Positions 228 through 55,472 of a DNA stretch of 64,000 nt are shown here, piece after piece. Origin of the DNA: an uncultured Candidatus Saccharibacteria bacterium (GTDB lineage: Bacteria > Patescibacteriota > UBA1384 > XYA2-FULL-43-10 > 1-14-0-10-43-13); NCBI GenBank assembly GCA_964628585.1, contig CAZVMH010000005.1:2491-66490 (forward strand), given 5' to 3'. Positions within the stretch are counted from its first letter, which is position 1. The number at the start of each line of letters is the position of its first letter. The notes beneath the pieces were generated by a model. It saw nothing but the letters and a program-made list of their open reading frames with translations. It was not told where the DNA came from and made no database searches. The translations under genes and the position numbers were made by a program.

Positions 228-3032
228 TCAGTCAACCTCAACTTTAAAGGTGACTTCGCGGGTGTCGTTGGGGTTTACCTGGCCGAGGTTCCAGGTGATT
301 TTACCGTTACTGTATTGTCCCTCGCCGGTGGCGGAATTGGTAACATATGTCGTCCCGTCAGGAATTTCATTGGATAAGATATTATTGCTTCCCGTGAAGG
401 TGTAAGGTGTGGGGTTGGTGATCTTTAAAGTATAGGTGATCTCCTGGCCGTGATTGGCGCTTGTACAACCTTCTGTCCCCCCACAACTTGATGTCTGCTC
501 GACTTTTAGATAGTCGTAGTAGAGGTCGGCAACTGCTAATAATGGATCAAGACCCGAAAAGTATATACTATCATCTAAAATGGCAATTCCTTTTTCACTC
601 TGATCTGATGAAGGTAAATAACCAATTTCAGTTGACTGAGAAGGATTGGTGACATCAATAATTTGTATACCGTTATAGTCTGCTGATGAACTAAAATTAT
701 TAACATATGCTTTATTTTGAACAATTGTGATATTTCTGCAAGAGCTAACTTTTGGGACAATAGTTTTAATTAATTGGGGATTGTTAGGCACATTAATATC
801 AACAACAAGTGTACCGTTAGCATCAGCTGTTAAAAAAGCAAATGTACCTTGAATCGCAACATCTCTTATATAATTATTAACACTAGGGGTGATGACATTG
901 GGATATAAATAAGGAGCAGATAGATTAGCAACATTAGCAACTCGCATATTTTCAGTGTTAGCGATATAAGCATAGATACCACTTACAGCTACTGCTGACG
1001 GGCTTCCGTTAGTGTTTAAAGTCGATTTTTTAATTGGATTTTGGGGATTATTTATATCGTAAATTAGTAAACCTTCACTTGTATTAGCGATAAATAATAA
1101 ATTATTTTTTACTGTGACACCACGTGGATAGTGAGAAGCATCTATTGTCGACAACAGAGACGGATTAAGAGGATTTCTAATATCAATTATTTTTATTGAT
1201 GAATAGGTGGAAGAAGATGAAGGTGGTGTATCGGCTAACACAATATAATCATTACCATAAAACGTGGAATCAAGAACCTTATTAGTATTTATTGCACCTA
1301 CTTGATAAGATTGTTTTTGGTTAATTATTTTATAAATATATAATTTTGATTGATAAGCGCTGTAGGTAGCAACATATAAATATTCACCTTTAATATTAAT
1401 TGAGCTAATATAATCTGTACTAGATATAAGAGACGTTACTATTGGGGCAAGTGGATTATTTACATCCGTTAATACTAAACCGCCGTACATTTCAGCAATA
1501 CCGAGAATATTATGGCAACTAATATCGATACTGTTATAATACGTATGACCGTGATGATTCTGAAAATTTTTGTATTTTGGGTAAAAAGGGTCCGATATAT
1601 CGTAAACAGCAAATCCATTATAATCATAACTATAAGCAAAACTGCCAATATATAAATAATTATTTAATATTTTAATACTCATGTTTACTTCACCCTCAGT
1701 TAAGTCATGGGTGTAAAATTTAATATCATCTGGATTATTAATTTCAAATATATACATATTTTCATTAGTTATTACATAAGCATAATTATTTTGGATCGCA
1801 ACATCAATGACAGAACCTTCAGTTTCGATTGTTTTAATAATAATAGGTAATTTTACATCGCTTATATTTAGTAACAAAATCCCAGTTCCGTCTGCGATTA
1901 CTGCTTTACCGTTATTAACTACTATTGACCTAGAAACTCCTGGGGTATCAAATATGCTAATTACTACAGGCATAATAGGATATGTTATATCATAAGTTAT
2001 TAAGCCAGCATCATAGCACGCTATAAATAATTTATTGTCTGATATATATAAACCGTAACTATAATCTGGGGTTTCCATAACCTTTACAATTTCGGGTTTA
2101 AATTTATCTGTGATATTTATTATAGATATATTTTTACCATTGCTAACGTAAACATAATTTTTATCATCCTCGATGATATCATATGCTTTATCTTCAAGCT
2201 TTACAGAACTTATTATGAGTGGATTATTGGGATTATGAACATCAGCAATTTGCATATTTTTATCAGATCCAATGTATAGATAATTACCATCTTTTGAGAA
2301 TTTGGGTACATATACGTTTTCGCCAACCATTGGCAACTCTCTCACTATTTTTGGGTTGACGCCGGTATACTTGTAGGTCGGGGTGGCGGAGGCGGTGTTG
2401 GTGTATTCGGTAAATGTTGTGTCGTTGAGTTTGCCTCTAACCTTGTAGTAGTAGGTGGTGTCGGCGACAAGGTCGGTGGTATCCGTGTAGGTGACGGTGT
2501 TGGCCGGCAGTGTGGCAAGAACGCTGAAGTGTTGGTCGTCGCCCTGGCTTTTCTCAACAATGTAGTTGGTCTCAATACCGGTGTGGTCTTGCCAGGCAAG
2601 ATTGATTTTAAGCGAGTCGGTCGCGGCTGTGGCGGTCAGGTTGGTGGGCGGATTGATGGGGATGGTGGCAGAGACGGTTGGGGTTGGTGGCGAAGGATTA
2701 TACGACGAATCGCGAGCTACGAGGTTAAAGTAGCGAGTATCGCCTTCGGTCAGTGGATTAGGCAAGGTATAGTTTGTCGTATCAGCTGGTCGAGTGGTCA
2801 GGTAATATAAGTTTGCGGCAGTTGTCCCCCATCTTATTTGATAATCTGTCTCACCGGCAACATCATCCCAGGTCAGTTTGATCTTGTTTGTCTCAACGAT
2901 AGTGGCTTTAAAATTTGTTGGTGTTGCCGGAACAGCCAAAACTGGCATTGCTCCCAAACTGAAAGTATACGCCAAAAAGATAATCGTTAAGACAACATTA
3001 GTAATACGTTTTAGTTTTGCATGCTTTAGCAT
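228..3032 (-). CDS. Giant secreted/cell-surface protein, paralog A (934 aa). Domains: signal peptide, Fn3 repeats, LVIVD-like beta-propeller repeats, C-terminal DUF11-like module with a CGGTEGC motif.
   Basis: N-terminal hydrophobic signal (VVLTIIFLAYTFSLGAMPVLA). Fn3-like segments (KIKLTWDDVAGETDYQIRWGTT; LTATAATDSLKINLAWQDHTGIETNYIVEKS). Repeated YAYV/LYIA...GLLIYDI blocks typical of LVIVD propellers. C-terminus ADLYYDYLKVEQTSSCGGTEGCTS...ITYTLKITNPTPYTFTG...KITWNLGQVNPNDTREVTFKVEVD is shared with the next two genes. SD-like AAGGAAAtttATG upstream. Confidence 0.85.
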   Translation of the reverse strand: MLKHAKLKRITNVVLTIIFLAYTFSLGAMPVLAVPATPTNFKATIVETNKIKLTWDDVAGETDYQIRWGTTAANLYYLTTRPADTTNYTLPNPLTEGDTRYFNLVARDSSYNPSPPTPTVSATIPINPPTNLTATAATDSLKINLAWQDHTGIETNYIVEKSQGDDQHFSVLATLPANTVTYTDTTDLVADTTYYYKVRGKLNDTTFTEYTNTASATPTYKYTGVNPKIVRELPMVGENVYVPKFSKDGNYLYIGSDKNMQIADVHNPNNPLIISSVKLEDKAYDIIEDDKNYVYVSNGKNISIINITDKFKPEIVKVMETPDYSYGLYISDNKLFIACYDAGLITYDITYPIMPVVISIFDTPGVSRSIVVNNGKAVIADGTGILLLNISDVKLPIIIKTIETEGSVIDVAIQNNYAYVITNENMYIFEINNPDDIKFYTHDLTEGEVNMSIKILNNYLYIGSFAYSYDYNGFAVYDISDPFYPKYKNFQNHHGHTYYNSIDISCHNILGIAEMYGGLVLTDVNNPLAPIVTSLISSTDYISSINIKGEYLYVATYSAYQSKLYIYKIINQKQSYQVGAINTNKVLDSTFYGNDYIVLADTPPSSSSTYSSIKIIDIRNPLNPSLLSTIDASHYPRGVTVKNNLLFIANTSEGLLIYDINNPQNPIKKSTLNTNGSPSAVAVSGIYAYIANTENMRVANVANLSAPYLYPNVITPSVNNYIRDVAIQGTFAFLTADANGTLVVDINVPNNPQLIKTIVPKVSSCRNITIVQNKAYVNNFSSSADYNGIQIIDVTNPSQSTEIGYLPSSDQSEKGIAILDDSIYFSGLDPLLAVADLYYDYLKVEQTSSCGGTEGCTSANHGQEITYTLKITNPTPYTFTGSNNILSNEIPDGTTYVTNSATGEGQYSNGKITWNLGQVNPNDTREVTFKVEVD

Positions 3033-3052
3033 AAATTTCCTTGTATACTTTT

Positions 3053-6000
3053 TTAATCTACCTTGACCTTGAAAGTGACTTCGCGTGTGTCGTTGGGGTT
3101 TACTTGACCGAGGTTCCAGGTGACTTTGCCATTACCAAATGTTCCCCCACCGGTGGCTGAATTGGCAACATATGTTGTGTTGGCGGGAATGGGGTTAGAT
3201 AAAATATTATTGTTGCCAGTAAATGTATACGGCGTCGGGTTGGTGATCTTTAAGGTATAGGTAATCTCTTGGTTATGCGTAGCGCTTGTGCACCCCTCTG
3301 TCCCCCCACAACTTGATGTCTGCTCGACTTTCATATAGTCGTAGTAGAGGTCGGCAACCATAGTTAATTCTGCGTCATTTGCCAAATAGACGTAACGTCC
3401 GTCAACTGAGAGAGCTTGAGTACGCCTTCCCCCGTCTGATAAAAAAGCCAGATCAGTAAGTATTGACGGCGTCGAAATATCAAAAAACTTAAAACCGTTC
3501 TCAGCGCTTAAGTAGCTAAAGCACGATGCGAACAACTTGTTTCCGGAGACAGTTATAGATGTGGCAGAGCTTGATATAGGTAACGATCCTGTACCGCCTT
3601 TTACGGGGCTCTGCGGTACTGTGACATTGATAATTTGAATAGTATTGACAATGCCGACATAGGCATAGCTATCTTTGGCGTCAACACTCACTAGTGTACC
3701 GGTTAATGTCAGCGTACCAATAAAACTAGCGCTAAGAGGATTGGCAATACTTAAAACCTTAAAAGTATCTTCACCGACAGTATAGGCGTAAGTACCTGAT
3801 ATGGCAATGTCACGAATCAACTTTTGCGAGCCCAATGTTTTTACGACCTTTGCTTGAGTAATATCAATAATAAGTAGGTTATTTATATCGCCGAGAGTGC
3901 GACCACCTATATACGCATAATTGCCGGCTGTCGCAACAGCTTGCAAATATTTATAATCACCAAAGGTCATGGTATTTATTAAATTTGGACTGGCCGGATT
4001 ACGAATGTCAATGATGGCTAATTTGTTGTTTTCGCAAATAACCAAGGCGTGGTGATTATTATCAAGGGCTATTTTTAACGGTTCACTAATATTGAAACTT
4101 TTAACATGAAGTGGCTTTTCGGGAGTTCCGCGCTGTTTAATATCATAGATGTATATTTTGTCCTGGACACCGGACTCGGGTATAACATAGAGATAATTGC
4201 CGTCTGTGACGTTATCTTTTGCTGTCATTGATTGTGGCATGACTGATAATATTGTTGAACTTTCTGGTGTAGCAACATCGACAATTGAAATGCCTCCGTA
4301 CGATTCAGCTAAAATAGCGATATTTTCCTTAACATCAATACCGCCATAATACGGTTGACCAGTAATTTGTACAAATTTTATTTCTTGAGGTACGGGCGAG
4401 GATATGTTAAATATTTGCAAGCCGTTAGACGTACTTAAGCCGGATCTGGTATTAACATAAGCAAAATTATTTTGAATTTTAACACCATTAATAGCACCGT
4501 ATAAAATTGGTCTACCGTTACCTAAGTACTGTGGTTGACTCGGGTCTTGAATATTTAGGGCAACAAGGCCGACATCACTACCAACACACAGATAGGCATT
4601 GCCGTTAGGGGCAATATCGATATCGAGAATCGGATTTCCGGCGTCGTAGATACCAAAAGAAGGTATTTGACCATTTCTGGCTGCTAATTCAAAATTAGCC
4701 GGTGTCGTTGTTAGTACTTGTTTATTTGAGTTGTTTCCTATTAAAACAATATTGTCATTGGCGGCAATAGTAGTAATAGCACCATTAATATTAATAGTAC
4801 CGATAGTTGTAGCAAGATACGGGTTTGTAATATCAACTAGAGCGGCGCCGCTGGTGTAAACGGCAAGATAGACATGATTGTTGTTGATTGCTATATCTTG
4901 TAAATAATTTGGAAAATCGATTGTTTTAATAACACGCGGTTTGAGGGGGTCAAAGACATTAACGATTTTTAAGGAATGATCGTCAATAACATATAAATAA
5001 CCGTTGTTGTCTAATTCTAAATCGGAAGGGCCAGCCATTTCCAAACTAGATAATATCAAAGGTTGATTTGGGACGCTAATATCAACGATACGTAGACTTT
5101 TAATATTACCATCAGTAACATACGCATATTGTTTATCTTGAGATATTATTACTTTGCTAGCATCGCCTATTGTCGGTGTCTTGCCAATCCACCCCGGGTT
5201 AATGCCGGTGTATTTGTAGGTTGGGGTGACAAAGACGGTGTTGGTGTATTCGGTAAATGTTGTATCGTTGAGTTTGCCTCTGACCTTGTAATAGTAGGTG
5301 GTGTCGGCAACAAGGTCGGTGGTATCTTCAAAGATTACGGTGTTGGCCGGCAGTGTGGCAAGAACGGTAAAGTTGCTCTCATCATTAGGGCTTCGTTCTA
5401 AGATGTAGTTGGTCTCAATAGTGGTGTGGTCTTGCCAGGCAAGGTTGATTTTAAGCGAGTCGGTAGCCGGTGTGGCGGTCAGGTTGGTGGGCGGATTGAT
5501 GGGGATGGTGGCAGAGACGGTTTCGGTGGGGGCCGAGCAACCGTAAACGTCGTGGCAGGCCTTTAGAGAAAAGTATCTGGTGTCGCCTTCGTTTAATGTA
5601 TAAGTGTAGATATAGCTGGTGGTGTTGGCGGAAGGATAAAAGAGATAGACAAGATTGTTTGGTGTTGTGCCGTAGTCCAGGCGATATTTGCTTTCACCAG
5701 CCACATCATCCCAGGTCAGTTTAATCTTGTTTGTCTCATAGACGGAGGCCGTAAAGTTGGCAGGCGTTGGCGGTGGCGGCGGGGTAGCCAAAGTTGTTGC
5801 CGTAACTTGTTGGTCGGCGCAGATTTCTTTACCGGCGTAGTAGTTAAAAGCGCATAAACGATAGGTGTAGGTTGTTGAGGGCAATAAGGAGGTATTGTCT
5901 GAATATGACCCTGGCGAGGCATCTGCTGATTGATTGTAGTCGCCGCTGCCACCGGTGCGGTAGAGCTTAATTTGGCTGTAATTGCCGCTATTGGTATTGG

Positions 6001-6481
6001 CCTGATTAGACCAGGTGAGGTTGATTCTGTCATAGGCAACGCCTTGGGCTGACAGGTTGTAGGGCGGGCCGTCTAAAGTGGTGGTAAATGCATAGGACGA
6101 AGAAGTTGACTCACCGTATATATTGTAGGGTAAGACCTTGTAATAGTAGGCGGTATAGCCCTTAAGGCCTGTGTCTTGGTAACTGGTTGCATCAACACCG
6201 GCTTCGCCAACCTGCTCCCAGGGACCGCCGTCCGACAAAGATCGTTTAATGTGGAAGCCCTGTTCGTCGGTAGCAGGACATGTCCACGTAAGATTTATTT
6301 GACTGTATGATATGGCTTTGGCGTTTAGACTGTAAACCTGTGTTGGCACACCGGCTCTGACAATTAAAATACCCAAAAACAAGACCGCCAAAGCCACACC
6401 GACACCGATTAAAACGCCGGTGAGAGTAAATTTACGCTTGGGTTTGGTTGGGGTTTGAGGTGATGATTGTTGCGTGTTCAT
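3053..6481 (-). CDS. Giant cell-surface protein, paralog B (1142 aa). Domains: N-terminal Lys/Pro-rich segment plus TM anchor, multiple Fn3 repeats, LVIVD-like beta-propeller, C-terminal DUF11-like module.
   Basis: N-terminus KPKRKFTLTGVLIGVGVALAVLFLGILIV (signal anchor). Several Fn3 units (INLTWTCPATDEQGFHIKRS; RINLTWSNQANTNSGNYSQIKLYR; KIKLTWDDVAGESKYRLDYGTT). The C-terminal 75 aa is nearly identical to paralogs A and C. RBS cAGGAGGgcaaaATG. Confidence 0.85.
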   Translation of the reverse strand: MNTQQSSPQTPTKPKRKFTLTGVLIGVGVALAVLFLGILIVRAGVPTQVYSLNAKAISYSQINLTWTCPATDEQGFHIKRSLSDGGPWEQVGEAGVDATSYQDTGLKGYTAYYYKVLPYNIYGESTSSSYAFTTTLDGPPYNLSAQGVAYDRINLTWSNQANTNSGNYSQIKLYRTGGSGDYNQSADASPGSYSDNTSLLPSTTYTYRLCAFNYYAGKEICADQQVTATTLATPPPPPTPANFTASVYETNKIKLTWDDVAGESKYRLDYGTTPNNLVYLFYPSANTTSYIYTYTLNEGDTRYFSLKACHDVYGCSAPTETVSATIPINPPTNLTATPATDSLKINLAWQDHTTIETNYILERSPNDESNFTVLATLPANTVIFEDTTDLVADTTYYYKVRGKLNDTTFTEYTNTVFVTPTYKYTGINPGWIGKTPTIGDASKVIISQDKQYAYVTDGNIKSLRIVDISVPNQPLILSSLEMAGPSDLELDNNGYLYVIDDHSLKIVNVFDPLKPRVIKTIDFPNYLQDIAINNNHVYLAVYTSGAALVDITNPYLATTIGTININGAITTIAANDNIVLIGNNSNKQVLTTTPANFELAARNGQIPSFGIYDAGNPILDIDIAPNGNAYLCVGSDVGLVALNIQDPSQPQYLGNGRPILYGAINGVKIQNNFAYVNTRSGLSTSNGLQIFNISSPVPQEIKFVQITGQPYYGGIDVKENIAILAESYGGISIVDVATPESSTILSVMPQSMTAKDNVTDGNYLYVIPESGVQDKIYIYDIKQRGTPEKPLHVKSFNISEPLKIALDNNHHALVICENNKLAIIDIRNPASPNLINTMTFGDYKYLQAVATAGNYAYIGGRTLGDINNLLIIDITQAKVVKTLGSQKLIRDIAISGTYAYTVGEDTFKVLSIANPLSASFIGTLTLTGTLVSVDAKDSYAYVGIVNTIQIINVTVPQSPVKGGTGSLPISSSATSITVSGNKLFASCFSYLSAENGFKFFDISTPSILTDLAFLSDGGRRTQALSVDGRYVYLANDAELTMVADLYYDYMKVEQTSSCGGTEGCTSATHNQEITYTLKITNPTPYTFTGNNNILSNPIPANTTYVANSATGGGTFGNGKVTWNLGQVNPNDTREVTFKVKVD

Positions 6482-6515
6482 TTTGCCCTCCTGATATTAC
6501 CCAACTACCACCTCC

Positions 6516-6532
6516 GGGGTGGAAGTTTGTCG
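6516..6532 (-). other. Short GC hairpin (CCACC-TCCGG-GGTGG) in the 61-bp spacer between paralog C stop and paralog B RBS. Possible attenuator or RNA-processing site within a polycistronic surface-protein transcript.
   Basis: Inverted repeat ccacctccggggtgg read directly. No T-run follows on the minus strand, so it is not a classic terminator. Confidence 0.3.
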
Positions 6533-6542
6533 GTTAAATTAG

Positions 6543-9500
6543 TTAATTGACCGTTACCTTAAAGCTCACTTCCCTTTCCTCGTTGGGGTTTACTTGACCG
6601 AGGTTCCAGGTGATTTTACCGCTACCGTATTGTCCCCCGCCGGTGACAGAACCCTGAACATATGTTGTTCCGTCAGGAATTTCATTGCTTAAAATATTAT
6701 TGTTGCCAGTAAATGTATACGGTGTGGGGTTGGTAATCTTTAAAGTATAGGTAATCTCTTGGCCGTGATTGGCGCTTGTGCACCCCTCTGTCCCCCCACA
6801 ACTTGATGTCTGCTCGACTTTTAAATAGTCGTAGTAGAGGTCGGCAACCTCGACAAGGTACTTTTCGTCTGTGATATATGCATAACGTCCGTTGGCGGTT
6901 GCTGCCATGGCATGGAAAGATGATTGTAAAAAAGCTTTTTCAGTAGCCATCGTTGGATTAGAAATATCGATTATTTGTAAACCATTATTGAAAAAATTCC
7001 AACTATAGTTGGCAATATAAACTAAGTTATTTTGTAAAAATACACTATAAGCCATATCGCGTGGTATGACTTCTCTAACAATAGAGGCATTAAATGGGTT
7101 GGTAGTTAAATTAACAATAAGCGTGCCTTGATTGAAAGCGGCAACATAGGCATAATTATTTGCCCCTACAGCAACATCGTGTGTTGTCTGTGTTGTCGCG
7201 ATGGTTTTAATCCACGTTAACGCATTAGCGTTGCTAACATTTAAGAGAGTTATACCAGCCGTGCCATCGGCGATAACGGCCGTTGTGCCGTTTAAAGCTA
7301 CGCCAAATACTTGTCCTGGCGTGTTGTATGACCCCAGTTTTTTAAGTGATAAAACATTATTCATATCAACAATGACTAATCCCGCTTCATAACAGGCGGC
7401 ATATATTTTATTGTCTTTAATAGAAACATCAAGTACATAATCGGGCATCTCGATACCGGAAATAATTGTCGGTATTCGTGGGTTACTGACGTCAACGAGA
7501 CGAATATATTTATCGTCGCTAACTACAACATAATTGCCGGTTATTTCTAACGCAATTGGTGAAGTAAGTTTTAATGCTCCCACCTGTTCCGGATATTTTG
7601 GGTCGCTAATATCGTAAATGTATAAATAATCTTGTATGCCAGAGTTGCTAAAAGTGTATAAATGATTACCACTAGTGACAATTTTTCCTGATGGTATATT
7701 AATCGTTGGTATATAAGCAATGGCCCAAGTATTTGTAAGATCGTTAGTGTCAAATATCGCCAAGCCATATAAATTGCCACTGGCGACGCTGACAATACCA
7801 CCAAAACTAGACACACCGCCATAATTATTACCAGCGTTAAGCATAAAAGCGATTTCTTTTAAGCTATTGTCAGGGTTGCGCTGGGTAACATCAAATATCT
7901 GAAGACCGTTATGGGTGTTAGCACGACTCAAATTAGCCACGTATATACGGTTACCGGAAGTAGAAACCCCGATTGCATAATCTCTTTGTAAAGAGGTCGA
8001 AATAAGGATGGGAATAGATGGCGTTGAAAAGTCAATTTCCAATAAACCAGCATATCCGGCGGGAATATAAGCACGACCGTTTTCGGCAATTGTCACATTT
8101 CTCACAATAGAAGCTGTATCTGTAATCGGTATTGATGATAAGTGTTGCGCAGATTTTAGATCAATAATTGCCACACCCTCTGTGCCATCGGCGACAACGG
8201 CCGTATCACCTAATACGGCCACCGATGATGCCTGACCCGGGGTGTCAATAGTTGTATCGAGCAAACGGGGTATAGACCGATTACTGACATCAACAATTCT
8301 AAGACCGACAGAATAGTTAGCAATGTATATTTTCTCGTCAAGATAGAACAATCCATTAACATAGTCCGTCAGCTCAAGCTCTGAAACAGCAATCGGTCGT
8401 TTTGGGTCATTAATGTTGGCAATTTTTAATTTTTTATTTTCACCATAATAAATGTAGCCCTTTTCATCAACTTTAATATCAAAAATTTCTTTACCTGTAT
8501 CGACATTTATTCTGCTCGTCAACAACGGATTCGTTGGATCAGAAATATCAACAATTTGAAGACCAGTAGACGATCCAACATATGTGTAATGACCGTCATT
8601 AGACATAGCTGTATATTTGGTGCTTCCCATTGACGGAGTTTTACCGATCCATCCCGGGTTGACGCCTGTGTATTTGTAGGTTGGGGTGGCAAAGACGGTG
8701 TTGGTGTAATCGGTGAAGGTGGTGTCGTTGAGTTTGCCTCTGACCTTGTAGTAGTAGGTGGTGTCGGCAACAAGGTCGGTGGTATCCGTGTAGGTTACAG
8801 TGTTAGCGGGCAGTGTGGCAAGAATGGTGAAGTGTTGGTCGTCGCCCGGGCTTTTCTCAACAATGTAGTTGGTTTCAATAGTGGTGTGGTCTTGCCAGGC
8901 AAGATTGATTTTAAGCGAGTCGGTCGCGGCTGTGGCGGTCAGGTTGGTGGGCGGAAAGGTATTTGTTGTTGCTTGGGCAATTGTTGGCGAATCGGAACAA
9001 CCATCAGCATTACAGGCCTTGATGTTAAAGTAGTAGGTCTTGTTTTCTGTAAGATTATTTGTTGTATAGGTGGTAGCATTAGCCGGTAGAGCCGGTAGTA
9101 AGTTTAGAGTGTTGGGGTCTTCGCCTTGACGCAGTTCAAAGCGGGTTTCGTTGTCGGAATTGTCTTGCCAGGTTAGTTTGATCTTTGTTACTTCTTGTAT
9201 ATTAGCTTCAAGGTTGGTGGGCATAGCCGGTGGTGGATCTGGTGGTGGCGGAGAAAAAGTTGTTGCCGAGGCCGTCTCGGTTGAGCAGGTCTCGCCGTAC
9301 GAGTTTGTGGCGCAAATGCTAAAAGTATAAGTAGTATTGGGCAAAAGATTCGTTTCAGTATATGACGTTCTCGGAGAAGGTATCCATGTTTTAATATCCG
9401 AATAAGGGCCACCGCTTCTGTTAATAATGAACCAGTCCACAACAGGGGCATTGTTAGTCCAAGAAACATTAATCTCGGTCTGGGAAACAGCTGTGGCTGT

Positions 9501-9950
9501 AAGATTACTGGGGGCAGCAGGAGGGCCACTAAGAGTTGTGGCGTAAGCCAGATTAGAATAGAAGGAATAGACCATATCAGCATTGAAAGCTCTGACACGA
9601 TAGAAATACCTAGTGTAATTTGCTAAGCCAGTGTCTTGAAAAGCTGTTGTATTAGCGGGTTGGGTAAATGTTGTCCAGGGGCCGTAGCTAGATGTTCCCC
9701 TTGCAACCTCAAAACCGGCTTCATCATTAGCATTATCAGTCCAAGTGAGATTAATTTGGCTGGGAGAAACGGCTGTAGCCGTCAGACCAGATGGAGCAGA
9801 GGGCGCTTGGGCCCTGACAATTAAGATACCAATAAACAAGACCGCCAAAGCCACACCGACACCGATTAAAACGCCGGTGAGAGTAAACCTGCGTTTGGGT
9901 TTAGGCGGGGTTTGGGGTTTGCTGGCAGTATTATTTAGAGCACTAGCCAC
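6543..9950 (-). CDS. Giant cell-surface protein, paralog C (1135 aa). Domains: TM signal anchor, four or more Fn3 repeats, LVIVD-like beta-propeller, C-terminal DUF11-like module.
   Basis: N-terminus KPKRRFTLTGVLIGVGVALAVLFIGILIV is almost identical to paralog B. Fn3 motifs (QINLTWTDNANDEAGFEVARG; EINVSWTNNAPVVDWFIINRSGG; KIKLTWQDNSDNETRFELRQG). Shared conserved C-terminus. Confidence 0.85.
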   Translation of the reverse strand: MASALNNTASKPQTPPKPKRRFTLTGVLIGVGVALAVLFIGILIVRAQAPSAPSGLTATAVSPSQINLTWTDNANDEAGFEVARGTSSYGPWTTFTQPANTTAFQDTGLANYTRYFYRVRAFNADMVYSFYSNLAYATTLSGPPAAPSNLTATAVSQTEINVSWTNNAPVVDWFIINRSGGPYSDIKTWIPSPRTSYTETNLLPNTTYTFSICATNSYGETCSTETASATTFSPPPPDPPPAMPTNLEANIQEVTKIKLTWQDNSDNETRFELRQGEDPNTLNLLPALPANATTYTTNNLTENKTYYFNIKACNADGCSDSPTIAQATTNTFPPTNLTATAATDSLKINLAWQDHTTIETNYIVEKSPGDDQHFTILATLPANTVTYTDTTDLVADTTYYYKVRGKLNDTTFTDYTNTVFATPTYKYTGVNPGWIGKTPSMGSTKYTAMSNDGHYTYVGSSTGLQIVDISDPTNPLLTSRINVDTGKEIFDIKVDEKGYIYYGENKKLKIANINDPKRPIAVSELELTDYVNGLFYLDEKIYIANYSVGLRIVDVSNRSIPRLLDTTIDTPGQASSVAVLGDTAVVADGTEGVAIIDLKSAQHLSSIPITDTASIVRNVTIAENGRAYIPAGYAGLLEIDFSTPSIPILISTSLQRDYAIGVSTSGNRIYVANLSRANTHNGLQIFDVTQRNPDNSLKEIAFMLNAGNNYGGVSSFGGIVSVASGNLYGLAIFDTNDLTNTWAIAYIPTINIPSGKIVTSGNHLYTFSNSGIQDYLYIYDISDPKYPEQVGALKLTSPIALEITGNYVVVSDDKYIRLVDVSNPRIPTIISGIEMPDYVLDVSIKDNKIYAACYEAGLVIVDMNNVLSLKKLGSYNTPGQVFGVALNGTTAVIADGTAGITLLNVSNANALTWIKTIATTQTTHDVAVGANNYAYVAAFNQGTLIVNLTTNPFNASIVREVIPRDMAYSVFLQNNLVYIANYSWNFFNNGLQIIDISNPTMATEKAFLQSSFHAMAATANGRYAYITDEKYLVEVADLYYDYLKVEQTSSCGGTEGCTSANHGQEITYTLKITNPTPYTFTGNNNILSNEIPDGTTYVQGSVTGGGQYGSGKITWNLGQVNPNEEREVSFKVTVN

Positions 9951-33303: not shown

Positions 33304-34820
33304 ATACTTAACTTATATTTACGATAAAGAAAAAACGTTGCCACAATCAAAATTGTATAGCAAACTGGCAAAACTAGCCAAGAATTTGTACTCCAAGTAA
33401 AAGATGCTCCTGGAATGCGAGCCATCCGCTCAACCATTATAATAATAAATTGCAAAGCCGGCCAAGCAAAAAATGAAGCCGATTTCCCAAGTGGATACCA
33501 AACTATTGTTAATAATCCTGTGATTGCGACAAGCCCCATTGCCCAGGGTACGATCCAAAGCACAAGCACATTTGATAATGGCGCAATAAGCGAAACGCGA
33601 CCAAAAACGACTAAAATGAGTGGGAACACGGCAATTTGGGCTCCCAATGTCGCCGTTAGTGTTGTTTTTAGCCAGTCTGGCATCTTTGATAAGAATTTTT
33701 TACTTTCAATATATTTCTCAATAATCGGCGAAAGATAAATTAAACCACAAAAAGCCAGAAATGAAAGCTGAAATCCAATATCGTTGTAAAGAACGAATGG
33801 ATTAACCAAAACCATAATGATCGCTGCCAAAAGCATGATATTTGTAAAGTCACCTCGCCGACCTAAAGTTTTACCAAACAATATCAGAAGCGAAAAGATT
33901 TCCGCTCTTACTACACTTGAAGCAGCACCGGTCAAAATAACAAAACCACCAATAAGAAGCACGCCTAAGATAAAAACTTTCTTCCGCCCCAGATATATGA
34001 CAAAAGAATCGGCAAAAATGGTCACGAGTATTGTAACGTTAAAACCAGACAGTGCAATTATGTGAGTTAAACCAGTAGTGCCCAGGGCATCTTTAAAATT
34101 TTGAGGAATGTTGCGCTTAATGCCGAGAATCAGGCCCGAAGCCAAACTTGCATGCGGTTCGGATAAAACAGAGTTTAGCGTTTCCTCTATGCGGGTTGAA
34201 ACGTAATACAAATTCCCGAGAATCTTTTGACCGATATTTAGATTCTGACCCTGGTCTTCTGCCTTTTCTGCCTGATTAATAACTCCAAAAATTAAATATC
34301 TTTTTAAGTATCGCCCGTAGTCAAATTCTTCTATCATCCCCGGTTTTTCAATCTTGCCAGAAAGAATGACGTTATCACCATAATGGACAGATGGGTAATG
34401 GGGCAAATTAACTAAAAGTAAACTGTTTGGAGTGAATTCTGCGCTCTGATTATCGCTTTCAATCTTTGAAATTTTGACCACAACCTGCTGGCGCTTGTAG
34501 TTAACATCGGGCTTTTTGACAATTCTGCCTTCGATTTGCATGTTCTGATCATACGGCAGGACAACTTGATGCTTAAAATCAAATAGAGAATAATATCCAG
34601 CCCCAAGGACAAAACAAAATAGCAAATAAGAGACTAGGACTATAAAATGATTCTTCAATACGAAATTAACAAGCGATGAGAAGAGTAGGGCTAATAGTAA
34701 AATTACAAATGAGACATAACTTTTTTCAAAATCAATTTTAATAAAATTGGACAAAAATACGCCAAACAAAAAAAATAGAGCAAAAAAAGTAAAGAGCCTA
34801 AATTTTGGCAAATTGGCCAT
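33300..34820 (-). CDS. comEC: ComEC/Rec2 DNA-uptake channel (DUF4131 plus competence domain) lacking the fused MBL domain.
   Basis: N-terminal TM helices plus OB-like region (NMQIEGRIVKKPDV...). Competence-domain core HIIALSGFNVTILV and multiple C-terminal TM helices. Confidence 0.85.
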   Translation of the reverse strand: MANLPKFRLFTFFALFFLFGVFLSNFIKIDFEKSYVSFVILLLALLFSSLVNFVLKNHFIVLVSYLLFCFVLGAGYYSLFDFKHQVVLPYDQNMQIEGRIVKKPDVNYKRQQVVVKISKIESDNQSAEFTPNSLLLVNLPHYPSVHYGDNVILSGKIEKPGMIEEFDYGRYLKRYLIFGVINQAEKAEDQGQNLNIGQKILGNLYYVSTRIEETLNSVLSEPHASLASGLILGIKRNIPQNFKDALGTTGLTHIIALSGFNVTILVTIFADSFVIYLGRKKVFILGVLLIGGFVILTGAASSVVRAEIFSLLILFGKTLGRRGDFTNIMLLAAIIMVLVNPFVLYNDIGFQLSFLAFCGLIYLSPIIEKYIESKKFLSKMPDWLKTTLTATLGAQIAVFPLILVVFGRVSLIAPLSNVLVLWIVPWAMGLVAITGLLTIVWYPLGKSASFFAWPALQFIIIMVERMARIPGASFTWSTNSWLVLPVCYTILIVATFFLYRKYKLSI

Positions 34821-34926
34821 TGTTTGCCCTCACTATAGCATATTATAGTAGATAACAGGATAAAGATGTCAGATAACAGCAGCTCCATTGACCAGTTGAC
34901 GATTTATCCGATTTGATGTACAATTC

Positions 34927-35406
34927 TTGAAGATGAAAAAAGAAAAAACAAACCCAAAACTTAGGGAATTAGAAGACAAGATAACTGAATTAACGGTTGG
35001 CTGGCAGAGAAGTCAAGCCGATTTTGAGAACTATAAAAAACGAACCGCCCAAGAAAAAATTGATCTGTGTAATAATTCTAATGCAAATTTGATATATAAT
35101 ATTTTGCCAGTGCTCGATAATTTTCAACTAGCTGCAAAACATGTGCCGGAAAATTTAAAGGATGACAATTGGGCCATGGGAATTAAACAGATTGAAAAAC
35201 AACTTGAAGACGTACTCGTAAGCGAAGGCCTTGAGAAGATTGAGACTATCGGTACAAAATTTGACCCAAATTTTCATGAGGCAATGGAGCACGTGGCGTC
35301 TGATAAACCTGAAGATGAAATTGTCGAGGAGGTTTTATCTGGATACAAATTTAACGATACAATATTGCGTGCTGCCAAAGTCAAAGTCTCTAGCGGAAAA
35401 AAATAA
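34927..35406 (+). CDS. grpE: Nucleotide exchange factor GrpE.
   Basis: ADFENYKKRTAQEK...LPVLDNFQLA...GTKFDPNFHEAMEHV. Confidence 0.9.
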   Translation: MKMKKEKTNPKLRELEDKITELTVGWQRSQADFENYKKRTAQEKIDLCNNSNANLIYNILPVLDNFQLAAKHVPENLKDDNWAMGIKQIEKQLEDVLVSEGLEKIETIGTKFDPNFHEAMEHVASDKPEDEIVEEVLSGYKFNDTILRAAKVKVSSGKK

Positions 35407-35469
35407 TTTTGGTCTATAAAATGGAAGAGGCGGACAACTTTGTAGTGTCCGCCCAGCTTCCCCTCTTAC

Positions 35470-35880
35470 TTTGTGCCACATGACCGTGGCCAAAATTATT
35501 TTTTTCCGACATACCTCGCCGGAGGAGGCCGGAGCTGGCGACCGCGCCGCCGGCGCGGTATTCTTCTTCGCTGTGCTAAAAAGCCGATCCTGCCATGGTC
35601 GAGGATGCTCTTCAGCATACCGTCGTCGCGATCGCCGTCCGGTTTTTGTCAAGCCGCGTACTGCGTAGGGGTGCAAGACCCTTTTGGACGCGGCTTCTTG
35701 CAGGAAGCACTACCCCCTAGGACTGCCACGGGGCAGGCTCCTCTGCAAGTCTTAATGGGCTGGCTGGCTACGGACCAGTGATTGTGCATCATCCTTGTCA
35801 TCGTCTGACAAGAACGGCGACACTTTACTGGATGTGCCAGCCAACTACCTTGCCCGCATCTTTCGATGCGAAGCGAAATA
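35470..35880. other. GC-rich (about 55-60% GC) non-coding island of about 400 bp in the grpE-dnaK spacer. Candidate structured ncRNA or remnant of foreign DNA. The strand is undetermined.
   Basis: Abrupt composition shift relative to flanks of about 33% GC. Many short GC hairpins (ccgcgccg/cggcgcgg, gcttcttgcaggaagc, cgcatctttcgatgcg). The ORFs called here are Arg-rich, overlap grpE antisense, and look non-coding. Confidence 0.3.
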
Positions 35881-36236
35881 GCGAACCGATGCGTAAAAAT
35901 ATAGCATAATGCTAAACATATGTCAATACTTCATTAGTTAAAAGTCAAAAAGTTTATAAAGTCAACAAAAAAGAGCTTGATCTATTCGACGAAGTTTATA
36001 TTGAGCTTGTCGAATATGCTCTAATTCAAAAGCTGACAAAAACAACTCTTGACAACGATATAAATGTAAAGTACACTTTACATTATAAGTAGTTTGAATT
36101 TACCATTTCCCATTGGTCATTTGCCATCAATTTATCAATTATCATTTAATGATTTAGAACAAATGTAAAATGTACAATGGGAAATTAATGAAAATTGAGA
36201 ATTGATAAATGAAAAATATTTTAAGAAAGGAATAGT

Positions 36237-38138
36237 ATGAGCAAAATCATCGGTATCGATTTGGGTACAACCAACTCCGCCGTAGCCGTAATGGAGGGTG
36301 GTGAGGCAAAAATTATTAACACAGCTGAGGGCGGAAGAACCTGTCCTTCCATTGTGGCTGAAACTAAAAAAGGCGACCGACTTGTTGGTCAACTTGCAAA
36401 AAGACAAGCCGTAACCAATCCAGAGAACACTGTTTTCTCGGTTAAACGTTTCATCGGACGAGATTTCGATGACAAAGAAGTACAGGCCGATCTTAAAAAG
36501 ATGCCTTACAAAACTAAAAAAGCATCTGATGGTTCTGTAAAAATAGTTTTGCAGGATAAAGAATATAGCCCACAAGAAATCTCTGCTGCCATTTTAGGCA
36601 AACTTAAAACTGATGCAGAAACTTTTCTTGGTGAGAAAATTACCGACGCTGTTATTACCGTGCCTGCATATTTTAATGATTCACAAAGACAAGCAACCAA
36701 AGACGCTGGTGAAATTGCGGGCTTGACTGTAAAGAGAATTATCAATGAACCAACTGCAGCTGCTCTTGCTTATGGCTTAGACAAGAAAAAGAGCGAAAAG
36801 ATCGCTGTATATGACTTTGGTGGTGGTACCTTTGATATTACAATTTTGGAGCTCGGCGAGGGTGTATTTGAAGTTCTTTCAACCAATGGTGACACTCACC
36901 TCGGTGGTGACGATGTTGACCAAGATATAATGGACCATATTATCGACGAGTTTAAGAAAGATCAAGGAATCGATCTGCATGAAGATAAAGCGGCCATTCA
37001 GAGAGTAAAGGAAGCTGCTGAAAAAGCTAAAATTGAGCTTTCAACTACAACTGAATCGGAGATCAACTTACCTTTCGTAACTGCAGATGCATCTGGACCA
37101 AAACATTTGCAAATAACCCTGACTCGCGCTAAGCTCGAGCAGTTGACTGCACCTTTCATTGAACGATCACTTAAACCTTGTGAAACCGTTCTTAAAGACG
37201 CAAAGCTTAAAACAACTGATATCGACGAGGTAATTTTGGTTGGTGGCATGACTCGAATGCCAGCCGTACGAGAAGCGGTAAAGAAATTCTTCGGCAAAGA
37301 GCCAAATCACTCCGTTAACCCAGACGAAGCCGTCGCCGTTGGCGCTGCTATCCAAGGCGGTGTACTCGGTGGCGAGGTCAAAGATCTATTGCTTTTGGAT
37401 GTAACTCCCCTTTCTCTTGGAATTGAGACTTTGGGTGGCGTTTCGACTAAATTGATAGAGAAAAACGCTACTATTCCAACCTCAAAATCACAGGTATTCT
37501 CGACTGCAGACGACAATCAAACCAGAGTGGAGATTCACGTTCTTCAAGGTGAACGTGAAATGGCTGCTGACAACAAAACTTTAGGCAGATTTATTCTAGA
37601 TGGTATCCCTCCAGCACCCCGTGGAATCCCTCAGGTTGAAGTTACATTTGATATCGATGCAAACGGCATCGTCAATGTTAAAGCGACCGATAAGGCTACT
37701 GGCAAGGAACAGAGAATTACTATTACTGCTTCTTCTGGCCTCTCCAAAGAGGAAATTGAGCGTATGAAACAAGATGCAGAAGCTCACGCCGATGAAGACA
37801 AGAAAAAGCGCGAACTTATCGATCTTAAAAACCAAGCAGACACGATCATTTATACCGCCGAAAAGACTATTTCTGATGCCGGAGACAAGATCGATTCCAA
37901 CCTAAAGAGCGACGTTGAGGCTAAGATTACTTCGCTCAAAGGCGTAAAAGATTCCGATAACGCTGAGGAAATTAAAACTCAGGTTGAGACCTTGAGCAAA
38001 TCCCTTCAGGAAGTTGGTACTCAAATGTATCAGAACGCCCAGAAGGAAGCCGACAAAGCGTCCGAAGCTAAGACAGAAGAGCCAAAAGAGGAAGAAGCTA
38101 AACCAGAAGAAGAGAAAACGGCCGAAGAGACAAAATAA
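36237..38138 (+). CDS. dnaK: Molecular chaperone DnaK (Hsp70).
   Basis: [10 protein letters not shown]...DLGGGTFD...[11 protein letters not shown]. Length 633 aa. SD AAGGAAtagtATG. Confidence 0.97.
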
Positions 38139-51375: not shown

Positions 51376-51452
51376 TGGTAGCGGCGGGAGGACTTGAACC
51401 TCCGACCTCGGGCTTATGAGTCCCACGCTCTAACCAGCTGAGCTACGCCGCC
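51376..51452 (-). tRNA. tRNA-Met (CAU), elongator type, CCA encoded.
   Basis: Reverse complement GGCGGCGTAGCTCAGCTGGTTAGAGCGTGGGACTCATAAGCCCGAGGTCGGAGGTTCAAGTCCTCCCGCCGCTACCA. Paired 1:72 (G-C). D-arm and T-arm are canonical. Anticodon loop CTCATAA. Resembles bacterial elongator tRNA-Met. Confidence 0.82.
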
Positions 51453-51876: not shown

Positions 51877-51953
51877 TGGTAGCGGGGGTTGGATTTGAAC
51901 CAACGACCTTCTGGTTATGAGCCAGACGAGCTACCGGACTGCTCCACCCCGCA
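51877..51953 (-). tRNA. Initiator-like tRNA-fMet (CAU), CCA encoded.
   Basis: Reverse complement TGCGGGGTGGAGCAGTCCGGTAGCTCGTCTGGCTCATAACCAGAAGGTCGTTGGTTCAAATCCAACCCCCGCTACCA. Near-identical to the E. coli initiator tRNA through the acceptor, D and T arms. Unpaired 1:72 (U.U), as in bacterial initiators. The anticodon stem has two rather than three G-C pairs. Confidence 0.8.
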
Positions 51954-55396: not shown

Positions 55397-55472
55397 GGGC
55401 CCGTAGCTCAGTGGTTAGAGCAGCCGGCTCATAACCGGTCGGTCGCAGGTTCGATCCCTGCCAGGCCCACCA
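55397..55472 (+). tRNA. tRNA with CAU anticodon, most similar to tRNA-Ile2 (lysidine-modified, the TilS substrate). Elongator Met is the alternative.
   Basis: GGGCCCGTAGCTCAGTGGTTAGAGCAGCCGGCTCATAACCGGTCGGTCGCAGGTTCGATCCCTGCCAGGCCCACCA. The D-arm and variable/T regions match E. coli tRNA-Ile2 (LAU) closely. One C.A mismatch in the acceptor stem. Confidence 0.75.

Follow-up and report, generated by a model that had tools for sequence, protein, structure and literature searches.

Among the large noncoding RNAs (ncRNAs) of bacteria, OLE, ROOL, GOLLD and the raiA motif RNA are GC-rich and were found as long GC-rich intergenic regions, by an approach that uses GC content and the length of the intergenic region (PMC6429828, PMC11109978). 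The element considered here is a GC-rich island in the spacer between grpE and dnaK, within a 64,000-nucleotide stretch of contig CAZVMH010000005.1 that was analysed as a whole and is referred to below as the window. The island resembles these RNAs in that it is GC-rich in an AT-rich genome, is several hundred nucleotides long, forms a stand-alone unit with many helices and no coding capacity, and has a small conserved core with variable peripheral stems. It differs from them in matching no model, in being restricted so far to few related lineages of the Candidate Phyla Radiation (CPR), in having no recurrent partner genes, and in having been lost in sister lineages. We consider it reasonably probable that the island represents a stand-alone gene for a structured ncRNA of a new family, one that matches no known RNA family and would probably act in trans.

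Two further groups of described elements bear on this locus. RNase P RNA, tmRNA, 6S RNA and signal recognition particle (SRP) RNA are comparable to the island RNA in size and share with it a tRNA-like GC content as well as a strong consensus promoter and an intrinsic terminator, but none of their motifs or models match it, and its gene appears to be dispensable. The enterobacterial dnaK motif (PBC-38-1), a small element that overlaps the promoter region in the dnaK-satP interval, has been proposed to be a single-stranded DNA or a protein-binding site (PMC11109978). Like this motif, the island is a conserved structured element in an intergenic region near a dnaK promoter; unlike it, the island comes from an unrelated phylum and takes the form of an RNA gene of 370-480 nt that is framed by a promoter and a terminator of its own, and no sequence relation between the two was detected. 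With the CIRCE/HrcA, HAIR/HspR and ROSE/fourU systems the island has the genomic neighbourhood alone in common. Unlike these classical dnaK control elements, it is read from the opposite strand and forms no part of the dnaK mRNA, and the likely operator of dnaK is a different palindrome.

Composition, folding and predicted transcription signals of the island

The first-pass annotation had described a GC-rich island of about 400 bp between grpE and dnaK, and this was confirmed. Positions 35470-35880 have a GC content of 56.9%, compared with a mean of 37.3% across the window (sd 0.051 for 411-nt segments; z = 3.9), and the 411-nt segment with the highest GC of the whole 64 kb (0.584) begins at 35447. 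Elsewhere, GC exceeds 0.52 only within three giant open reading frames (ORFs) at 228-9950. The four tRNA genes of the window have GC contents of 0.57-0.66, the same composition as the island, which therefore has the composition that this genome gives its structured RNAs. The island, earlier noted as full of short GC helices, folds better than dinucleotide shuffles on both strands. The minus strand gave -200 kcal/mol with a z-score of -5.97 and the plus strand a z-score of -4.05, and the minus strand also folded better than the plus strand in the orthologous element of a related locus, L091 (z = -3.91 vs -2.86).

A predicted sigma-70 promoter and a predicted intrinsic terminator delimit a minus-strand unit at 35414-35926, slightly larger than the first-noted interval (Table 1). 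The promoter, with 11 of 12 consensus matches and the TG extension, was the top-scoring site of a motif scan covering 34700-36400, and L091 has a promoter at the equivalent relative position (TTGACA-16-TG-TATAAT, 12 of 12 matches plus TG). The start of the RNA is placed at 35890-35894 and its 3' end in the U-tract at 35414-35428. The terminator hairpin lies 8-47 nt past the grpE stop codon; a simple scan did not flag it, owing to its 9-nt loop, while the L091 copy was flagged. L091 and two further relatives, L088 and L176, have terminator hairpins that differ in sequence but share the U-rich tail (about -18 to -19.5 kcal/mol, the window copy included), and the RNA terminator probably acts bidirectionally. 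The unit thus carries its own promoter and intrinsic terminator on one strand of a noncoding segment, which is the generic mark of a stand-alone RNA gene. The predicted RNA is convergent with grpE and divergent from dnaK, and because the minus-strand promoter and terminator lead away from dnaK, it is not a dnaK leader or thermometer. The earlier suggestion of a thermometer or regulator in the dnaK leader was accordingly not upheld, as the RNA is on the opposite strand, upstream of the dnaK promoter and operator, terminated, and outside the dnaK mRNA.

Table 1. Predicted features of the grpE-dnaK spacer and its flanking genes (window coordinates; z-scores are folding z-scores).
Feature	Position	Strand	Description
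Predicted ncRNA, ~481 nt	35414-35894	-	Delimited by promoter and terminator; GC 0.563
Predicted sigma-70 promoter of the RNA gene	35898-35926	-	-35 TTGACA (35926-35921), 17-nt spacer, extended -10 TG-n-TATATT ending at 35898
H1, 5' hairpin with GAAA loop	35852-35874	-	GCUUCGCAUC-GAAA-GAUGCGGGC
Long irregular hairpin, 88 nt	35758-35845	-	z = -6.5; gap in the L091 alignment
Single-stranded linker leading into H2	35750-35757	-	CAUUAAGA; conserved, UAAGA invariant
H2, 53-nt hairpin	35697-35749	-	Base CUUGC/GCAAG conserved; interior diverged, still pairs
H3, conserved core	35651-35696	-	Closing stem GCCGCG/CGCGGC; internal loops CAAAAG and CC-N-ACGCA; small apical hairpin
H5, 114-nt branched GC-rich hairpin domain	35529-35642	-	z = -4.35; differs between species
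A-rich linker, hairpin H6, conserved motif	35475-35508	-	Linker CGGAAAAAAAUAAUUUUGG, H6 (GGCCACGGUCAUGUGGC), then conserved GGCACAAA
Intrinsic terminator of the RNA	35414-35453	-	Hairpin GGCGGACA...UGUCCGCC (35429-35453), then UCUUCCAUUUUAUAG; -19.5 kcal/mol
grpE	34927-35406	+	One flank of the island
dnaK	36237-38138	+	Other flank of the island
Predicted dnaK promoter	36049-36077	+	TTGACA-17-TACACT; motif scan
Perfect 10+10 palindrome	36064-36083		AATGTAAAGT-AC-ACTTTACATT; overlaps the dnaK promoter, outside the island

The island does not appear to be an assembly product. The 1.6 kb around it were 100% identical across five independent contigs from different SRA/JGI samples (L081-L085), and a chimera or artefact is rejected because these five independent assemblies agree. 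The strain contig L086 had three differences, all within 32 nt of the contig end, and these were treated as assembly noise. The first-pass annotation had also raised a foreign scar, a contaminant or a chimeric join, and this part of its interpretation was not supported, given the five identical assemblies, the synteny in relatives, the tRNA-like GC content, and the absence of any significant match in the phage and plasmid collections.

Conservation and distribution among relatives

The organism belongs to the Patescibacteria (CPR), and its GrpE and DnaK are closest to proteins of Berkelbacteria-like metagenome-assembled genomes. Homologue searches covered about 180 fetched loci of GrpE and DnaK relatives, with six lineages having a GrpE at least 85% identical. 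Conservation in related genomes, which had been put forward as a check on the island, was found in several of these. L091/L177 (DnaK 95%, GrpE 85%) contain a GC-rich minus-strand element of about 370 nt at the same locus, with promoter and terminator. The sequences of L088 (GrpE 87%) and L176 (GrpE 85%) stop inside or just past the element, leaving 3' fragments which retain the terminator architecture and have a 3' tail related to that of L091.

The RNAs of the window and L091 are alignable in blocks only: the promoter, the UAAGA linker, the base of H2, H3, the GGCACAAA motif and the terminator tail. Within the core, 55 of 63 columns (87%) are identical, compared with 40.5% of the four-fold sites of grpE and 67.5% of those of dnaK, giving binomial P-values of 2e-14 and 3e-4, respectively. 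Judged by these comparisons, the RNA core appears to be under purifying selection. The peripheral domains vary in length, and the 3' domains differ between the window species and L091. A hairpin of different sequence was observed in L091 at the place equivalent to H1, and a 74-nt domain of other sequence (z = -4.7) at the place of H5, while the 88-nt hairpin between H1 and the linker has no counterpart there and looks to be an expansion in the window species. A small conserved core with a periphery of variable length is the usual pattern in structured RNAs.

Pairing was retained where sequence was not. The interior of H2 is only 31% identical, and each species nevertheless forms a long irregular hairpin (z = -4.9 in the window and -4.3 in L091). 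A hand alignment of H2 gave 18 common pairs, with eight unchanged, four changed on one side, six compensatory and none broken, while sliding the partner by 1-3 columns as a control broke most pairs. The apical hairpin of H3 is GGU/ACC in the window and GGC/GCC in L091. These covariation data come from two full-length sequences and from a hand alignment fitted to the predicted fold of each, and are suggestive rather than statistical. Several H2 pairs are G-U in both species, for which the plus-strand equivalent would be an A-C mismatch, and since these pairs fit the minus strand only, the RNA is assigned to that strand. The strong fold, the L091 orthologue with its conserved core and compensatory changes, and the lack of an Rfam family at lax thresholds together agree with the earlier suggestion of a novel structured RNA.

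Two lineages have only traces of the element. The last ~100 nt of the RNA gene remain in L171, where they adjoin the dnaK promoter, and only the junction and U-tract remain in L087, where the grpE-dnaK spacer is 92 bp. The simplest history would be an ancestral RNA gene in a small CPR clade (Patescibacteria, Berkelbacteria-like), followed by its deletion in at least two lineages, including L171 and L087, and because of these deletions the gene would be dispensable. From its occurrence in the loci compared, the RNA is probably lineage-restricted, belonging to few closely related CPR bacteria.

A perfect 19-nt inverted repeat, CGGAAAAAAATAATTTTGG, was also observed near the 3' end of the RNA gene. 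One arm (35394-35412) spans the final codons of grpE together with its stop codon, the other (35490-35508) is the A-rich linker CGGAAAAAAAUAAUUUUGG within the RNA gene, and the terminator hairpins lie between them. The repeat does not occur in L091, and relatives differ at 2-3 positions per arm; these arm differences suggest recent conversion or selection for pairing.

Searches for known families and competing explanations

No match to the island was found with Rfam 15 at the gathering threshold across the whole window. The Rfam comparison that had been suggested was extended to E <= 10 with lax filters, using cuts of 1001 nt and 491 nt around the island as well as L091, L088, L171 and L176, and again no family was matched; the matches returned were chance ones of miRNA and snoRNA type that did not reach significance at E = 0.1. 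The first-pass annotation had found no hallmarks of RNase P, tmRNA or SRP RNA, and both Rfam and ARAGORN bear it out. RNaseP_bact_a and RNaseP_bact_b gave no match to the window RNA or to L091, at gathering score or at E <= 10, and on reading the sequence of the RNA the conserved P4 strands of RNase P (GAGGAAAGUCC and ACAGAA..GGCUUA) were absent; the only P4-like strands (AAGCCGCGU / ACGCGGCUU) are 28-30 nt apart, compared with ~290 nt in RNase P. ARAGORN called four tRNAs only in the window and nothing in L088 or L091, and the island had no Rfam tmRNA match. Neither the SRP RNA nor the 6S RNA model (domain IV motif and central bubble, respectively) matched at E <= 10, and the RNA is two to four times longer than these. 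The Rfam 15 models of OLE, ROOL, GOLLD, HEARO, raiA, and group I and II introns also gave no match to the window RNA or L091, and in the literature searched no CPR RNA of this kind was described.

ORFs are present on the island, including one of 113 aa on the minus strand that runs antisense into grpE, as had been reported, and their dismissal as implausible holds. Each frame has at least three stops (at least two in L091), no Pfam match was obtained, and six-frame comparison with L091 and L088 gave no conserved translation. On these grounds a protein-coding island was ruled out. A spurious ORF called on the L088 island likewise had no match in a protein database search.

Nucleotide-level searches for further copies returned little. 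Searching the first 80 GrpE loci with the island by blastn and nhmmer gave nothing, and blastn of the window and L088 islands against 170 loci matched only contigs of the same species. A fuzzy motif search of the related loci found the window and L091/L177 only, as did a covariance model (R1) run on the window and 172 of 181 loci (~1.0 Mb). Searches of phage and plasmid collections in distant blastn mode gave a single chance match of 36 nt. Traits of a mobile element were not observed: the window holds a single copy, the borders of the indel lack terminal repeats, the ~1.0 Mb of related loci contain no other copy, and the neighbouring genes are comEC, grpE, dnaK and dnaJ. A duplex search of translation-initiation regions for mRNA targets did not single out dnaK, grpE or dnaJ, and this search was judged uninformative.

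A scan of IMG/VR with the core motif gave one match, L175 157-199 (UViG_3300042868_007171), at a contig end within a high-GC, iteron-like repeat region with a 6-bp flanking stem. This candidate was rejected as a chance match, being within the few expected by chance and scoring 10 bits with R1, although it was not rigorously excluded as a homologue.

The position of the RNA beside grpE raises an alternative in which it would regulate that gene in cis: its 3' portion would overlap the 3' UTR of grpE, with antisense pairing or polymerase collision tuning the 3'-end formation or stability of the grpE mRNA. The RNA is convergent on grpE and ends at a shared hairpin close to its stop codon, a terminator-like site on the plus strand (35541-35559) would let grpE transcripts enter the RNA gene for ~150 nt, and the 19-nt inverted repeat joins the RNA linker to the grpE stop region. 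Such a role, however, needs neither a 400-nt GC-rich folded body nor a conserved core 250 nt from the overlap, the repeat is absent in L091 and makes the RNA identical rather than complementary to the end of the grpE mRNA, and lineages in which the RNA is deleted retain intact grpE and dnaK. We regard this explanation as unlikely, and give about the same low weight to an RNA that stems from a mobile or selfish element or travels with one, such as a decayed ORF-less intron or a transposon-associated guide RNA, and that landed in a hotspot from which it is being lost. The spacer is indeed hypervariable among relatives (92 bp in L087, ORFs in L089, L172 and L180, and a transposase end in L179), with inserts resembling miniature inverted-repeat transposable elements (MITEs) in L091, L176 and L180 and a tRNA-like fragment in L180, and the presence of the RNA varies among close relatives. 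Set against this, the island is single-copy in the 64-kb window, and its ends have neither terminal repeats nor target duplications. It has its own consensus promoter and a core that appears to be under purifying selection, and it matches no group I or II intron, HEARO or other Rfam family and nothing significant among phage, plasmid or viral sequences. Position and orientation of the element are also shared between the window species and L091, and L088 and L176 contain 3' fragments that match; because of this syntenic placement and these fragments we favour vertical descent followed by deletion over repeated insertion.

The remaining alternatives are weaker still. A functionless remnant of foreign GC-rich DNA, or a pseudogene, might fold merely through its GC-richness, since GC-rich sequence folds stably on both strands, and the segment is missing from some close relatives. 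We consider this improbable, as the folds beat dinucleotide-preserving shuffles of equal composition, the core is conserved far above neutral sites, and helices pair despite random-level identity; in addition conservation extends to the promoter and terminator, neither protein similarity nor a conserved frame was found, and the GC content equals that of the host tRNAs. The size, GC-richness and consensus promoter are typical of stable RNA genes, and the H3 stem is loosely like the P4 helix strands of RNase P on a reading of the sequence that involved no test, so that one could think of a highly divergent RNase P RNA, tmRNA, 6S RNA or SRP RNA that standard models miss in CPR bacteria. This seems very improbable: the 491-nt query had no Rfam match at E <= 10, ARAGORN found no tmRNA, the P4-like strands have the wrong spacing, and the gene is deleted in sister lineages. 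Least credible to us is a plus-strand cis-regulator of the grpE-dnaK operon (a thermometer, attenuator or processing site), for which the placement between two plus-strand heat-shock genes and the folding of the plus strand could be cited. The dnaK promoter and operator lie downstream of the island, over 340 nt separate the island from the dnaK ribosome-binding site, and relatives with no island retain the same dnaK promoter and operator, while the promoter, terminator tail, folding z-scores and G-U pairs all favour the minus strand.

Several points weigh against an independent ncRNA gene, the explanation we prefer. Its promoter and terminator are motif predictions. Full-length sequences number two, with two additional 3' fragments, and the covariation rests on a hand alignment that is outside statistical testing. 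The gene is deleted in L171 and L087 and hence dispensable, and it was not found elsewhere in ~1.0 Mb of related loci, a very narrow distribution. A selfish or decaying element would fit as well, the locus being an insertion hotspot, and no partner protein or target is indicated.

If the island is an RNA gene as we propose, its near-consensus housekeeping promoter would drive minus-strand transcription away from dnaK, and the intrinsic terminator would stop the transcript just short of running antisense into grpE. The product would be a chain of GC-rich hairpins in which the UAAGA linker, the H2 base and H3 with its two internal loops make up a small conserved centre, and in which the peripheral helices vary in sequence, length and presence between species yet stay paired, these variable hairpins presumably giving stability. 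The folded RNA may then act in trans, as part of a ribonucleoprotein or as a binding scaffold, and this is the step of which we are least sure. The functional site could be the conserved junction (UAAGA, the H2 base, and the H3 loops CAAAAG and CC-N-ACGCA), which might present a surface for protein or ligand binding. The gene would in that case be an accessory gene and not a cis element of the dnaK operon.

Structured RNAs of more than ~300 nt with no assigned function are rare, and earlier cases often proved to be ribozymes or to form the core of an unusual ribonucleoprotein. CPR genomes are tiny and have little spare DNA, and because of this small genome size, the consensus promoter and the apparent selection on the core, a 0.5-kb noncoding gene is unlikely to be idle. 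We raise, more tentatively, the possibility that the RNA is the first member of an undescribed class of large (370-480 nt) structured RNAs of a CPR lineage, in which the conserved three-way centre would be a catalytic, ligand-binding or protein-binding site. If true, this would be a new ribozyme or ribonucleoprotein from organisms whose genomes are minimal. To our knowledge ncRNA biology is almost unknown in this part of the tree, and the RNA, if real, would add a class from a poorly explored phylum and provide a defined sequence for covariance-model searches, metatranscriptomes and in vitro probing.

The spacer in relatives, the dnaK control region and other window features

Upstream of grpE is comEC, on the opposite strand, and a dnaJ-like gene is found downstream of dnaK. 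Relatives with a GrpE no more than 73% identical have other spacer content, including a nucleotidase gene in L174 and ORFs of unknown function in L089, L172 and L180. Three to five such ORFs fill the spacer of L089 (4687-7460) and L172 (4718-8474), while L180 holds one; those of L089 and L172 had essentially no Pfam or PADLOC match and showed no sign of defence genes or mobile elements. Positions 1-113 of L179, in the grpE-dnaK spacer, encode the C-terminus of an integrase-type transposase. A tRNA-like 3' fragment (acceptor and T-arm, GGGGUUUGAAUCCCC...CCCGACCA) together with a terminator was observed at ~1390-1500 of L180 and is not called by ARAGORN. At the extreme 3' end of grpE, a GC-rich MITE-like insert was observed in L091 (787-895), L176 (~1085-1110) and L180 (~660-715), where it alters the C-terminus of GrpE; related sequence occurs in other lineages, and the L091 insert has direct repeats ATCTTCCATATTC and inverted ends of the GTCGAACCAT/ATGGATTCGAC type. 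L091 also contains, at 1340-1445, a symmetric multi-hairpin element of ~105 nt (CUGCUCACUCG...CGAGUGAGCAG) with U-tracts on both sides. Placed between the RNA promoter and the dnaK side, and not present in the window, this element could serve as an insulator or bidirectional terminator, or else be a small mobile element. Taken across these loci, the grpE-dnaK spacer appears to be a hotspot of change in related CPR genomes.

The first-pass annotation had seen no CIRCE or HAIR operator, and the absence of CIRCE was confirmed. CIRCE (TTAGCACTC-N9-GAGTGCTAA) had no match in the 64 kb with up to three mismatches, but a conserved operator-like palindrome does exist outside the island (Table 1). Its core, TGTAAAG-N4-CTTTACA, was observed in ten loci (L003, L004, L087, L089, L091, L098, L142, L171, L179 and L180, the last by manual reading), and it lies just upstream of dnaK in all five loci where the region was read (L087, L091, L171, L179 and L180). 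The palindrome is probably the heat-shock operator of dnaK in this CPR group, which would move the likely control site of dnaK to a conserved sequence that is neither CIRCE nor HAIR.

The dnaK leader of the window (36085-36236) is ~150 nt long and AT-rich, with nested inverted repeats such as an 11-bp stem UUUCCCAUUGG/CCAAUGGGAAA at 36105-36185. In L087, L091 and L171 the leader is only ~35 nt, and that of the window looks like it carries an insertion of ~125 nt. The fold of this leader was unexceptional (z = -0.64), the ribosome-binding site was not obviously masked, and there was no sign of a thermometer. Between the RNA and dnaK promoters, a promoter-like block with an internal inverted repeat cTTGATCtATTCGACgaagttTATATTgagcttGTCGAAT was observed at 35988-36025 (1458-1500 in L091). 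It is conserved in L091 and missing in L087 and L171, and because the spacing of its hexamers is only 14 nt it may bind a protein rather than act as a promoter.

Elsewhere in the window, stretches of 0.52-0.57 GC with a strong positive GC skew were observed at 2280-2890, 5150-6070 and 8650-9000, inside three consecutive minus-strand ORFs of 934, 1142 and 1135 aa (228-9950), and these are probably the coding sequence of repeat regions, biased in composition, within large surface proteins. Three of the tRNA genes have a CAT anticodon and lie within 4 kb (51376-51452, 51877-51953 and 55397-55472), with 500 bp between two that are on the minus strand; presumably the three represent the initiator, elongator and tRNA-Ile2 types.

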